From NCBI RefSeq assembly GCF_045037415.1, contig NZ_CP173438.1: a stretch of 64,000 nucleotides of DNA; one strand, given 5' to 3'. The notes beneath the pieces are model-generated. The model saw only the letters and a program-made list of their open reading frames with translations. It was not told where the DNA came from and made no database searches. This DNA is from Escherichia coli (GTDB lineage: Bacteria; Pseudomonadota; Gammaproteobacteria; Enterobacterales; Enterobacteriaceae). Shown here piece after piece: positions 2,327 through 41,255 of this stretch. Position 1 is the stretch's first letter, and the number at the start of each line of letters is the position of its first letter. The translations under genes and the position numbers were made by a program.

Positions 2327-3099
2327 TACTTGGTTGTAAATCCGTAACGTTTAAAGATTTCCGCAGCCTGCGGCCCCTTCAGATAATCATAAAATGCTTT
2401 CACTGTCGCATTGTTATGCCCTTCCACAACAGCAACCGGATATTCCACTTTTTTATGTGAATCTTCCGGGAAGGTGGCAACCACTTTTACCCCTTTGCTG
2501 GCAACTGCGTCAGAACCGTAAACAATACCCAGCGGCGCTTCATTGCGTTCGACCAACGCCAGCGCGCCACGAACATCTTCCGCCGGAGCCAGTTTCGGGG
2601 AAAGCGTATCCCATGCGCCCAGTTTTTGCAGTGCTTCTTTCGCATAAATGCCAGCAGGGACATGTTCCGGATCACCAACCGCGAGGCGACCGCCATTCAG
2701 CAGCGAAGTCCAGTTGGTTTTGCTGTCGATGGTGAAATCTTTCTGCTCGCTGGCTTTCGGTGCTACAACGACCAGGCTATTGCCGAGCAGTGTCTGGCGC
2801 GAAGCCGTATCGATCGCTTTTTTATCAACCGCATAATCCATCCATTTCTGATCGGCAGAAATAAACAGATCCGCAGGCGCACCCGCTTCAATCTGACGGG
2901 CCAAAGTAGATGACGAAGCGAAAGAAGAAACCACATCCACGCCTTTCTCTTTTTTATACTGCGTAGCAATGTCCTGCATTGCGTTAGTCAGTGATGCGGC
3001 GGCGAACACCGTGATTTTCCCTTCATCTGCCAGTGCATTGCCAGCAACAGCGAAAGAGAGTGCCGCCCCGGTAAACAAGTTCAACCATTTACGAGCCAT
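2326..3099 (-). CDS. modA: molybdate periplasmic binding protein
   Basis: 257 aa with signal peptide; first gene of modABC. Confidence 0.95.
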   Translation of the reverse strand: MARKWLNLFTGAALSFAVAGNALADEGKITVFAAASLTNAMQDIATQYKKEKGVDVVSSFASSSTLARQIEAGAPADLFISADQKWMDYAVDKKAIDTASRQTLLGNSLVVVAPKASEQKDFTIDSKTNWTSLLNGGRLAVGDPEHVPAGIYAKEALQKLGAWDTLSPKLAPAEDVRGALALVERNEAPLGIVYGSDAVASKGVKVVATFPEDSHKKVEYPVAVVEGHNNATVKAFYDYLKGPQAAEIFKRYGFTTK

Positions 3100-3118
3100 T
3101 GGTAACCCCTTAATCTAA

Positions 3119-15071: not shown

Positions 15072-16115
15072 TTATCCACGTAGTGTAGCCGCAAAATCCA
15101 GCATACGATTGAGCGGCACCAGCGCCCTCTCTCGCAGCCTTTCATCAACATAAACCTCGTGATTGCTTCCTTCCAGTTCTAATGCCTCTGCGATGGCCTG
15201 AAGGCCATTCATGGCCATCCACGGACAATGCGCGCAGCTGCGACAGGTTGCGCCCTCACCCGCGGTTGGTGCTTCCAGTAACTCTTTATCTGGCACCGCC
15301 TGCTGCATTTTGTAGAAAATGCCCCGATCGGTTGCCACGATAAGCCGCTGATGTTGCAATGTTTTCGCAGCAGCGATCAGTTGACTGGTGGAACCGACCG
15401 CATCCGCCATCTCTACAATAGCTTGCGGTGATTCTGGATGCACCAGTATGGCAGCATCCGGGTATTCTTCTTGCAAGCGGGTTAACGCCTGAGTCTTAAA
15501 CTCATCATGCACAATGCAGGCACCCTGCCAGCATAAAATGTCTGCGCCCGTCTGTTTTTGCACGTAACGCCCCAGATGTTTGTCAGGTGCCCAGATGATT
15601 TTTTCACCCAAACTATCCAGATGATCAATAAGTTCGACGGCAATGCTTGAAGTTACCACCCAATCTGCGCGCGCTTTTACCGCAGCAGAAGTGTTGGCGT
15701 AGACGACGACAGTACGATCGGGATGGGCATCGCAAAATGCGTTAAATTCTTCAACAGGGCAGCCGAGATCCAGTGAACATTCAGCCTGAAGTGTCGGCAT
15801 CAGAATTGTTTTTTCCGGACTGAGAATTTTGGCGGTTTCTCCCATAAATCTCACCCCAGCGACTAGCAACGTAGAAGCGGGATGCTTTGCACCGAAGCGC
15901 GCCATTTCCAGAGAATCAGAAATACAGCCACCGGTTTCTTCTGCCAGTTGTTGAATTTCGGGATCGGTATAGTAGTGGGCAACCATCACCGCATTACGTT
16001 CTTTTAGTAGACGTTTTATCTTCTCGCGGTAATTCGCTTTTTCATCAATGCTTAACGGCGTCGGCTTCGGGGGGAAAGGATAAATCGCCGTGTCTGGATC
16101 AAACATCACGCTCAT
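15072..16115 (-). CDS. nadA: quinolinate synthase
   Basis: 347 aa starting [18 protein letters not shown]. Confidence 0.97.
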
Positions 16116-16187
16116 CTTACCATCTCGTTCTACAGGCTTAACGTTAAAACCGACTTAAGCGTGATATTCGCTATTATCGGCGTAATT

Positions 16188-16205
16188 TGTTTTATATACT
16201 AAACA
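16188..16205. promoter_or_regulatory. NadR box upstream of nadA
   Basis: TGTTTTATATACTAAACA, one mismatch to TGTTTA-N6-TAAACA, about 75 bp upstream of the nadA start. Confidence 0.55.
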
Positions 16206-16359
16206 AGATAGTCGAATGGTGGGGAAAAGTCACTCGAATTACGTATGAGATGCCGAATGCCACACTTTGCGTCTTATTCCTCCGACGTAGAGTTGTTTAC
16301 GCAGCAAACGCGGAGTATGTCATCAGGGTCAAGAATTGAAATTGAGAGATGCCTGAATA

Positions 16360-16392
16360 GCAAAAAAACGCCTTTAGGGCGCTTTTTTGCAT
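16360..16392 (-). terminator. terminator of the Lys/Val tRNA operon
   Basis: GC hairpin followed by a T-run on the minus strand immediately 3' of the last tRNA. Confidence 0.55.
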
Positions 16393-16468
16393 TGGTGGGT
16401 CGTGCAGGATTCGAACCTGCGACCAATTGATTAAAAGTCAACTGCTCTACCAACTGAGCTAACGACCC
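16393..16468 (-). tRNA. lysQ: tRNA-Lys(UUU)
   Basis: 76-nt exact match to recalled E. coli tRNA-Lys incl. CCA; symbol by position in operon. Confidence 0.93.
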
Positions 16469-16501
16469 CTTGCGGGATTATGCTGCTTTAATCATTCAGG
16501 A

Positions 16502-16577
16502 TGGTGGGTCGTGCAGGATTCGAACCTGCGACCAATTGATTAAAAGTCAACTGCTCTACCAACTGAGCTAACGACCC
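16502..16577 (-). tRNA. lysZ: tRNA-Lys(UUU)
   Basis: identical 76-nt tRNA-Lys copy. Confidence 0.93.
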
Positions 16578-16625
16578 ATACGGGTGTTACCTGAAAGATT
16601 TCTACTCGGAACCAATGTTTAAAAT

Positions 16626-16701
16626 TGGTGGGTCGTGCAGGATTCGAACCTGCGACCAATTGATTAAAAGTCAACTGCTCTACCAACTGAGCTAACGACC
16701 C
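16626..16701 (-). tRNA. lysY: tRNA-Lys(UUU)
   Basis: identical 76-nt tRNA-Lys copy. Confidence 0.93.
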
Positions 16702-16704
16702 GAG

Positions 16705-16780
16705 TGGTGGGTGATGACGGGATCGAACCGCCGACCCCCTCCTTGTAAGGGAGGTGCTCTCCCAGCTGAGCTAATCACCC
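16705..16780 (-). tRNA. valZ: tRNA-Val(UAC)
   Basis: 76-nt match to recalled E. coli tRNA-Val(UAC) incl. CCA; 3-nt spacer to next tRNA. Confidence 0.9.
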
Positions 16781-16831
16781 GATACTGCGCTGGATACTAC
16801 AAACTACTTCCACCGAACCCACCGTAATCAG

Positions 16832-16907
16832 TGGTGGGTCGTGCAGGATTCGAACCTGCGACCAATTGATTAAAAGTCAACTGCTCTACCAACTGAGCTA
16901 ACGACCC
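16832..16907 (-). tRNA. lysW: tRNA-Lys(UUU)
   Basis: identical 76-nt tRNA-Lys copy. Confidence 0.93.
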
Positions 16908-16909
16908 GG

Positions 16910-16985
16910 TGGTGGGTGATGACGGGATCGAACCGCCGACCCCCTCCTTGTAAGGGAGGTGCTCTCCCAGCTGAGCTAATCACCC
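16910..16985 (-). tRNA. valT: tRNA-Val(UAC)
   Basis: 76-nt tRNA-Val copy; 2-nt spacer to lysW. Confidence 0.9.
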
Positions 16986-17020
16986 GATACTACGCTGGAT
17001 ACTACAACTAACTATGTTAG

Positions 17021-17096
17021 TGGTGGGTCGTGCAGGATTCGAACCTGCGACCAATTGATTAAAAGTCAACTGCTCTACCAACTGAGCTAACGACCC
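17021..17096 (-). tRNA. lysT: tRNA-Lys(UUU)
   Basis: identical 76-nt tRNA-Lys copy; first gene of the operon. Confidence 0.93.
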
Positions 17097-17139
17097 ACTT
17101 TTTCGTTGCTTTCGGTTTGTTTGATATCCCGTGGCAACG

Positions 17140-17180
17140 GCGGCATATATTACTGATTTCAGACTTGAGCGCAACAAAAA
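17140..17180 (-). promoter_or_regulatory. putative sigma70 promoter of the tRNA operon
   Basis: minus strand: -35 TTGCGC, 16-bp spacer, -10 TAATAT, GC-rich discriminator, A/T-rich upstream tract. Confidence 0.45.
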
Positions 17181-17260
17181 TTTCGATGTAGATCACTCAA
17201 CTGCTTATGATTCGCACGACACGACCAGAAATAATGCGACTTCTGGTCGTGTGTTATGCA

Positions 17261-18052
17261 TTACATCGCGTTCAGACGTTTTTGCGCCTGTTTAGCGCCA
17301 TCAGTACCAGGGTATTTACTGATAACCTGCTGGTATACGGCTTTCGCTTTTGCGGTGTCACCTTTGTCCTGCATGATGACGCCGACTTTAAACATCGCAT
17401 CTGCAGCCTTCGGTGACTTCGGATAGTTTTTCACTACCGAAGCAAAATAATACGCCGCATCATCTTTTTTACCCTTGTTGTAGTTTAACTGACCCAGCCA
17501 ATAATTGGCGTTTGGCAGGTAAGTTGAATCAGGGTAATTTTTGATGAAATTCTGAAATGCCACCATTGCGTCATCCTGGCGGGATTTATCCTGCACCAGC
17601 GCAATAGCTGCATTGTAATCCGTGTTTGCATCACCGCTTTTCACCGGCGCGCCAGCATTCGAAGTACCAGCATCAGCTGTCGGCGTCGTTGATGCCACCA
17701 CACCGCTTTGATCGCCGCTGGTTGATTGCGCCGCTGCACCACCGCTGCTGAGGCTGTCGATCTGCAACAGGATCTGCTTTTGCCGCTCCACGACCTGATT
17801 CAGTTGATACTGATTTTCCTGAATCTGACCACGCAGGGAATCAATATCGGATTGATTATCAGAGAGTTGTTGCTGGAGTTGGGTTAAAAGCTGGCTGTGA
17901 GCATTAGAAATACGCTCAAGTTGAGTGACGCGGTCTTCGACCGAGCCTGAGCCGACACTACTGATTGGTGCCTGAGCAAAAGCGGCCCAGGGGGCCGCTA
18001 TACCAACCAGTAACGACAGACTCAATAGTTGATGTCTGAAGTTACTGCTCAT
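17261..18052 (-). CDS. cpoB: cell division coordinator CpoB (TPR periplasmic protein)
   Basis: 263 aa; signal peptide, coiled-coil, C-terminal TPR; last gene of tol-pal cluster. Confidence 0.95.
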   Translation of the reverse strand: MSSNFRHQLLSLSLLVGIAAPWAAFAQAPISSVGSGSVEDRVTQLERISNAHSQLLTQLQQQLSDNQSDIDSLRGQIQENQYQLNQVVERQKQILLQIDSLSSGGAAAQSTSGDQSGVVASTTPTADAGTSNAGAPVKSGDANTDYNAAIALVQDKSRQDDAMVAFQNFIKNYPDSTYLPNANYWLGQLNYNKGKKDDAAYYFASVVKNYPKSPKAADAMFKVGVIMQDKGDTAKAKAVYQQVISKYPGTDGAKQAQKRLNAM

Positions 18053-18061
18053 GCAATTCTC

Positions 18062-18607
<546 letters not shown>

Positions 18608-41068: not shown

Positions 41069-41255
41069 CTGCATTTCTTTTGTAGGCCGGATAAGGCATT
41101 CACGCCGCATCCGGCGCTGTTTGCCTGATGCGACGCTTGCGCGTCTTATCAGGCCTACGGTTTCTGCATTTCTTTTGTAGGCCGGATAAGGCGTTCACGC
41201 CGCATCCGGCACTGGTTGCCTGATGCGACGCTTGTGCGTCTTATCAGGCCTACGG
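41069..41255. repeat. BIME: two tandem ~95-bp copies, each a REP pair
   Basis: 41069-41163 and 41164-41258 near-identical; each holds GCCGGATAAGGCGTTCACGCCGCATCCGGC and GCCTGATGCGACGCTTGCGCGTCTTATCAGGCCTACGG. Confidence 0.85.

Follow-up and report, generated by a model that had tools for sequence, protein, structure and literature searches.

The tRNA genes of the array

The window, by which we mean the whole 64-kb stretch of Escherichia coli DNA analysed here, contains exactly seven tRNA genes by ARAGORN, all of them on the minus strand and all of them at 16393-17096. All seven pass the cloverleaf threshold of Rfam family RF00005 (gathering score 29), with 79.2 bits for each of the five Lys genes and 65.9 bits for each of the two Val genes, and ARAGORN concurs with this assignment. 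The anticodons that ARAGORN reads at position 34 are ttt and tac, and the 3′ CCA is encoded in every copy, each of which ends in ACCA.

In transcription order, the array starts with a tRNA-Lys(UUU) gene at 17021-17096, the equivalent of lysT and identical to K-12 lysT. It is followed by a tRNA-Val(UAC) gene at 16910-16985, the equivalent of valT, identical both to K-12 valT and to the other Val copy. Then come a tRNA-Lys(UUU) equivalent to lysW (16832-16907), which lies 2 nt (CC) past the preceding Val gene, the second tRNA-Val(UAC), equivalent to valZ (16705-16780), and a tRNA-Lys(UUU) equivalent to lysY (16626-16701), which lies 3 nt (CTC) past the preceding Val gene. Two more tRNA-Lys(UUU) genes, equivalent to lysZ (16502-16577) and, as the last gene, to lysQ (16393-16468), complete the order Lys(UUU)-Val(UAC)-Lys-Val-Lys-Lys-Lys, with spacers of 35, 2, 51, 3, 48 and 33 nt.

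Direct comparison shows that the five Lys(UUU) copies are one and the same 76-nt sequence. The 18 nt at the Lys 3′ end occur 5 times in the window when 0.01 occurrences would be expected, so that five exact 76-nt copies cannot be due to chance. The earlier note on this DNA had described a seven-gene array of five Lys and two Val genes in this same order, with five identical Lys copies and two spacers of 2-3 nt. ARAGORN and Rfam bear out the gene content, ARAGORN the order, and direct comparison the identity of the Lys copies; the two very short spacers are CC and CTC, both of them Val-to-Lys. Where the earlier note went wrong is in a single-C difference that it suspected between the two Val copies. 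That difference is absent: by direct string comparison, the two Val(UAC) genes are one sequence, identical across all 76 nt.

Nor does any Val variant in other E. coli genomes correspond to the change that had been described. Among 20 E. coli loci compared (L001-L020), the Lys copies are invariant throughout. A single-base variant in one Val copy is found at 4 of these 20 loci: L011 (valZ), L014, L019 and L020 (valT). Two of them change T to A in the T-loop, one changes C to A in the T-stem, and one changes G to A in the D-loop. The four variants come from a fuzzy-regex search, and they may be real polymorphisms or assembly errors.

A few other Rfam matches were considered and rejected. A YrlA match that spans two Lys genes is sub-threshold (44 bits vs. 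69) and is explained by its likeness to tRNA, and matches to Plastid-ycf2, RNAI and permuted-tmRNA fall far below threshold.

Identity and genomic context of the locus

The array sits between cpoB (ybgF), pal and tolB on one side and nadA and pnuC on the other, which is the chromosomal position of the lysT operon. A 1,151-bp stretch around the array is 100% identical in several complete E. coli chromosomes (SK1144, GN04204, B36). The annotation of SK1144 has cpoB, pal, tolB and tolA upstream, and nadA, pnuC and zitB downstream; the open reading frames of the window agree with these neighbours, and across the array query (window 16150-17300) SK1144 shows 100% identity. In K-12 MG1655, too, cpoB and nadA enclose these seven genes, and their order is unchanged. 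All seven K-12 tRNA sequences are the sequences of the window, and the 164-nt interval from the cpoB stop codon to the first tRNA is identical to that of K-12. Gene order on one strand, tRNA sequences and promoter region all place the array in the lysT operon. In K-12, this operon holds five of the six genes for the sole lysine tRNA, whose anticodon UUU reads AAA and AAG. Of the five K-12 genes for tRNA-Val(UAC), it holds two.

How general is this location? We used a flank query, made by joining 3 kb from the nadA side to 3 kb from the cpoB side, against complete E. coli genomes, and found the two flanks joined across the locus in 5,407 of 5,426 of them. A search with the array itself as query was set aside in favor of the flank-only query, as repeated tRNAs fragment the matches and make per-row tRNA counts unreliable. 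The overall GC content of the window is 50.7%, as expected for the E. coli chromosome.

In PMC4758250, a tRNA array unit is defined by 20 or more tRNA genes that are spaced at 2 or more per kb. With seven tRNA genes in the whole 64-kb window, the cluster is not an array unit by this definition.

Upstream of the operon, at 18023-18161 on the minus strand, a match to the CpoB/ybgF intergenic RNA thermometer (RF02782, 153.7 bits vs. a gathering score of 51) spans the pal-cpoB junction.

Proposed promoter and terminator

A generic sigma-70 consensus scan called no promoter in 16100-17400, so the promoter was read by eye, using the identity of the region with K-12. The candidate sigma-70 promoter that we propose from the sequence lies at 17147-17174 on the minus strand. 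It consists of a −35 element TTGCGC (17174-17169), a 16-nt spacer, and a −10 element TAATAT (17152-17147). A GC-rich discriminator, GCCGCCG, follows the −10 element, and an A/T-rich stretch lies directly upstream of the −35 element (17184-17175). The candidate escapes the consensus scan because its −35 element matches only 3 of 6 bases. Given these hexamers and the K-12 identity of the region, it is plausible that the 164-nt interval holds a stable-RNA promoter.

At the other end, RNA folding finds a Rho-independent terminator, a hairpin followed by a U-run, at 16360-16390 on the minus strand, starting 2 nt past the last CCA. The hairpin folds at −18.7 kcal/mol (z = −4.5), and none of 200 shuffles fold as well. 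It is the same element as that of K-12 (L002 2656-2686) except for one C-to-T change, by which a G-C pair becomes G-U and which leaves the predicted hairpin stable. The opposite strand has a terminator-like site as well. Within the locus, only one promoter-like site and one terminator were seen.

Immediately behind the cpoB stop codon, and ahead of the candidate tRNA promoter, there is in addition a 12-bp perfect inverted repeat, ACACGACCAGAA ... TTCTGGTCGTGT, at 17219-17252 on the minus strand. It is identical in K-12, and it has no U-run, therefore it is not a typical intrinsic terminator.

The compact spacers in comparison with K-12

While the genes are the same, the array is 704 bp long in the window and 1,099 bp long in K-12. 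The 35-nt Lys-to-Val spacer after the first gene (16986-17020) is 135 nt long in K-12, and the 51-nt Lys-to-Val spacer after the lysW equivalent (16781-16831) is 149 nt long. The two Lys-to-Lys spacers, 48 nt after the lysY equivalent (16578-16625) and 33 nt after the lysZ equivalent (16469-16501), measure 146 and 132 nt in K-12. Both CC and CTC Val-to-Lys spacers are identical in K-12 and the window (CC and CUC in K-12 are also given in PMC4176162). The region after lysQ is approximately 155 nt shorter in the window than in K-12. Neither the identity with the classical lysT operon nor the fact that four of its spacers are some 100 nt shorter than those of K-12 was recognised in the earlier note.

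Each long K-12 spacer is made of an insert of about 100 nt and a distal part, and the distal part is the short spacer of the window except for a few SNPs. At its end, each K-12 insert repeats 18 nt of the tRNA-Lys 3′ end, ATCCTGCACGACCCACCA, and the inserts are therefore bounded by direct repeats. A fifth K-12 insert follows lysQ; it is about 155 nt long and comes with a duplicated terminator. Rfam assigns all five to RtT (RF00391), with scores of 46.7-60 bits vs. a gathering score of 45, at L002 positions 1631-1730, 1920-2017, 2224-2321, 2446-2544 and 2684-2809, and there are none in the window at 16116-17260. The array of the window and the region downstream of it are shorter than in K-12 because these five RtT-family inserts are absent.

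The absence is seen by three different measures. The window has no RtT (RF00391) match at the gathering score of 45 bits or at E ≤ 1, including the 35-nt spacer and the three other spacers that hold an insert in K-12. It has no match to the conserved core of the RtT insert when 3 mismatches are allowed, and no extra copy of the 18-nt Lys 3′ repeat beyond those in the tRNA genes.

RtT RNA is known from the rttR repeat units of the tyrT operon. Every insert at the lysT locus closes with a repeat of the 3′ end of the tRNA beside it, and according to the older tyrT literature the tyrT repeat units do likewise. In other strains RtT RNA is a neighbour of the lysT tRNAs, and copies downstream of the last Lys gene are annotated as RtT sRNA by PGAP in several of them, but the window is without any. 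Within the limited reach of our literature search, we found nothing specific on RtT-like repeats in the lysT operon.

Variation among E. coli strains

Measured from the nadA start to the cpoB stop, the locus falls into 24 length classes that range from 912 to 1,921 bp (58 evenly spaced rows), and we parsed one representative of nearly every class for its structure. In the window, nadA and cpoB are 1,145 bp apart. The earlier note had suspected that copy number varies between strains, and it does so: the representatives carry 5, 6, 7 or 8 genes. This claim of the note holds, together with its gene identities, order and short spacers; of its interpretation, only the differing Val copies fail.

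There are two ways of having five genes. In L003 (three Lys and two Val, K3V2) the last two Lys genes are lost, and the flanks are 99.9% identical to the window; in L009 (K4V1) it is the lysT-valT unit that is missing. The six-gene representatives (K4V2), which are L004, L006 (O157:H7) and L015, have lost one Lys gene. The eight-gene representative, L010 (K6V2), has one Lys gene duplicated together with its 48-nt spacer. On sequence grounds, these variants match the products that would be expected of unequal exchange between identical 76-nt Lys genes. For 60 evenly sampled complete E. coli genomes, assigning to each length class the structure of its representative gives about 52 with seven genes, 5 with six, 2 with five and 1 with eight. 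These figures are estimates, since in some classes a single member was checked and since deposited assemblies can mis-resolve repeats. Seven genes is the clear mode. Differences of plus or minus one in tRNA gene copy number among E. coli strains have been reported before (PMC4539685).

Most of the length variation is due to the RtT-like inserts and not to gene number. The inserts are present or absent independently at each position across E. coli strains and other Enterobacteriaceae. The seven-gene E. coli alleles examined show at least 10 presence/absence combinations over the four spacers, in addition to 0-2 downstream copies. RtT-free alleles like that of the window occur in about 13 of the 60 sampled genomes (~22%), an estimate with which the array search agrees, as at least 80% of the array of the window is covered in 1,315 of 5,425 genomes. 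Inserts at the same position are 96-98% identical between strains, and inserts at different positions only ~63-80%. This pattern fits old, position-specific inserts that may have dropped out through deletion across the 18-nt repeats, or passed from one strain to another. Tentatively, and with somewhat more doubt than belief, we suggest that the compact allele may be one end of a mosaic of RtT-like units bounded by 18-nt repeats, and that natural RtT-free strains show the inserts to be dispensable for the function of the operon, if this has not yet been described systematically.

Could the gene count or the short spacers be simply an assembly artefact, in which near-identical repeat units have been collapsed? 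Tandem identical 76-nt repeats are a classic source of collapse, and the K-12 spacers are much longer. But the same 1,151-bp stretch is found, without a difference, in the independently assembled complete genomes of SK1144, GN04204 and B36, and some 1,315 genomes cover at least 80% of it. Moreover, every short spacer is unique and equals the distal part of the corresponding K-12 spacer except for a few SNPs, which means that nothing in it is chimeric, and intermediate alleles with one to three inserts exist. We consider a collapse very improbable.

Even less credit can be given to the idea that the array came by horizontal transfer, or on a phage or island, and is not a core chromosomal operon. 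In its favor, integration can take place at tRNA-Lys 3′ ends, strain MSB1_4I has a phage integrase gene immediately downstream of the array's last Lys gene, and a few tRNA matches (15 of 46,161 places) are on plasmids. But the flanks on both sides of the locus are conserved in 5,407 of 5,426 E. coli genomes, nadA follows directly in the window with no integrase, arrays of the Lys-Val-Lys type are on Enterobacteriaceae chromosomes among the matches listed, the GC content is that of the E. coli chromosome, and the window has no extra copy of the 18-nt Lys 3′ end, so that the conserved synteny effectively refutes it.

In MSB1_4I (L142), the phage integrase and hypothetical genes occupy positions 1773-2765, where the window has nadA, and the last tRNA-Lys is at 3033-3108. 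In MSB1_4I, then, this tRNA-Lys appears to be where an integrative element attaches.

Expression and processing

The reading that we hold with near certainty is that the array is the E. coli lysT operon, present here as a compact, RtT-free allele of a locus whose gene number varies by recombination between Lys genes, and no result speaks against this identification. As in K-12, it would have one promoter, one transcript, one terminator and 3′-to-5′ processing by RNase P. The operon itself is already known, and its transcription, processing and near-essentiality have been studied before.

Agrawal, Mohanty and Kushner found that the K-12 lysT cluster gives rise to a single transcript longer than 1100 nt (PMC4176162). 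According to the same study, RNase P is needed for the separation of the tRNAs, which proceeds from 3′ to 5′ after the terminator has been removed. RNase E has no site in the CC and CUC Val-to-Lys spacers; it cuts in the long spacers only, and chiefly in the absence of RNase P activity. The Lys 3′ ends are made by RNase II/PNPase and then RNase T, and the Val 3′ ends by RNase PH (PMC4176162). [quoted passage not shown]

By analogy with K-12, a single transcript would start from one promoter, located some 50 nt before the first gene, and would end at the hairpin-plus-U-run terminator just past the last gene. RNase P would remove the terminator first, and would then cut each mature 5′ end, proceeding from the 3′ end of the transcript towards its 5′ end. 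Exonucleases would then shorten the 3′ trailers, with RNase II/PNPase acting before RNase T on Lys and RNase PH acting on Val, and the encoded CCA would be kept. Val-to-Lys spacers as short as 2-3 nt, in which RNase E has no site, would be tolerated because RNase P cuts at mature 5′ ends in the 3′-to-5′ direction. The primary transcript of the compact allele would be roughly 0.8 kb in length, vs. more than 1.1 kb, since the RtT-family inserts are absent after all Lys genes. In this account we infer that the K-12 mechanism carries over to the compact allele, and nothing in the window suggests otherwise.

What the locus can be used for

As a textbook E. coli tRNA operon, the array has little discovery value. 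The mosaic presence and absence of RtT-like units is the only thread in it that is mildly novel, and it concerns other strains more than the window. On the other hand, the lysT locus is a compact and highly polymorphic marker, and 24 length classes among 58 sampled genomes call for care at this locus in assemblies and typing schemes. The RtT-free strains are natural controls for the function of RtT-like spacer elements, and they can be used to ask whether the access of RNase E to the long spacers matters in the maturation of tRNA-Lys and tRNA-Val. If the mosaic reading is true, they would provide isogenic-like material for finding out what those elements do, for instance whether they are points of entry for RNase E, small RNAs released by processing, or remnants of integration at the tRNA 3′ end.

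Related operons in Enterobacterales

A scan for the junction of a Val gene, a short spacer and a Lys gene, using one genome per species, returned at least 120 loci. The matches listed span the Enterobacterales, with Citrobacter, Enterobacter, Klebsiella, Salmonella, Pantoea, Erwinia, Serratia, Edwardsiella and a Buchnera among them. ARAGORN shows two recurrent forms among these matches: a valU type, Val-Val-Val-Lys, and a lysT type, which is mostly Lys-Val-Lys-Lys-Lys. Among the matches listed, the seven-gene form appears in Escherichia and in one Kluyvera genome, and the Val-Val-Val-4-Lys form, with 4 nt before the Lys gene, is seen in many genera. The spacers of the lysT type are either short (~20-50 nt) or long (~125-150 nt) in the matches listed, many of whose Lys genes are followed by a copy of the Lys 3′ end at a distance of 97-103 nt. 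The spacer dimorphism extends across Enterobacteriaceae, and it is therefore old and widespread.

In E. coli, the valU operon (valU-valX-valY-lysV) has the same Val(UAC) and Lys(UUU) tRNA sequences as lysT, but its gene order and its chromosomal site are different, and it is outside the window. It too has a very short Val-to-Lys spacer (CUUC) and an RNase P-dependent 3′-to-5′ processing (PMC4176162).

Other elements in the region

In E. coli AVS0193 (L141), an IS1 was suspected to be inside the array. This was rejected, as the IS1 (1597-2294) interrupts pnuC, two genes downstream of the array, and the array is unchanged; the flanks are 100% identical to the window. Elsewhere in the window, at 41085-41155 and 41180-41250 on the plus strand, there are two adjacent matches to the nucleoid-associated non-coding RNA naRNA4 (RF02564), with scores of 79.6 and 86.8 bits vs. 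a gathering score of 59.5.
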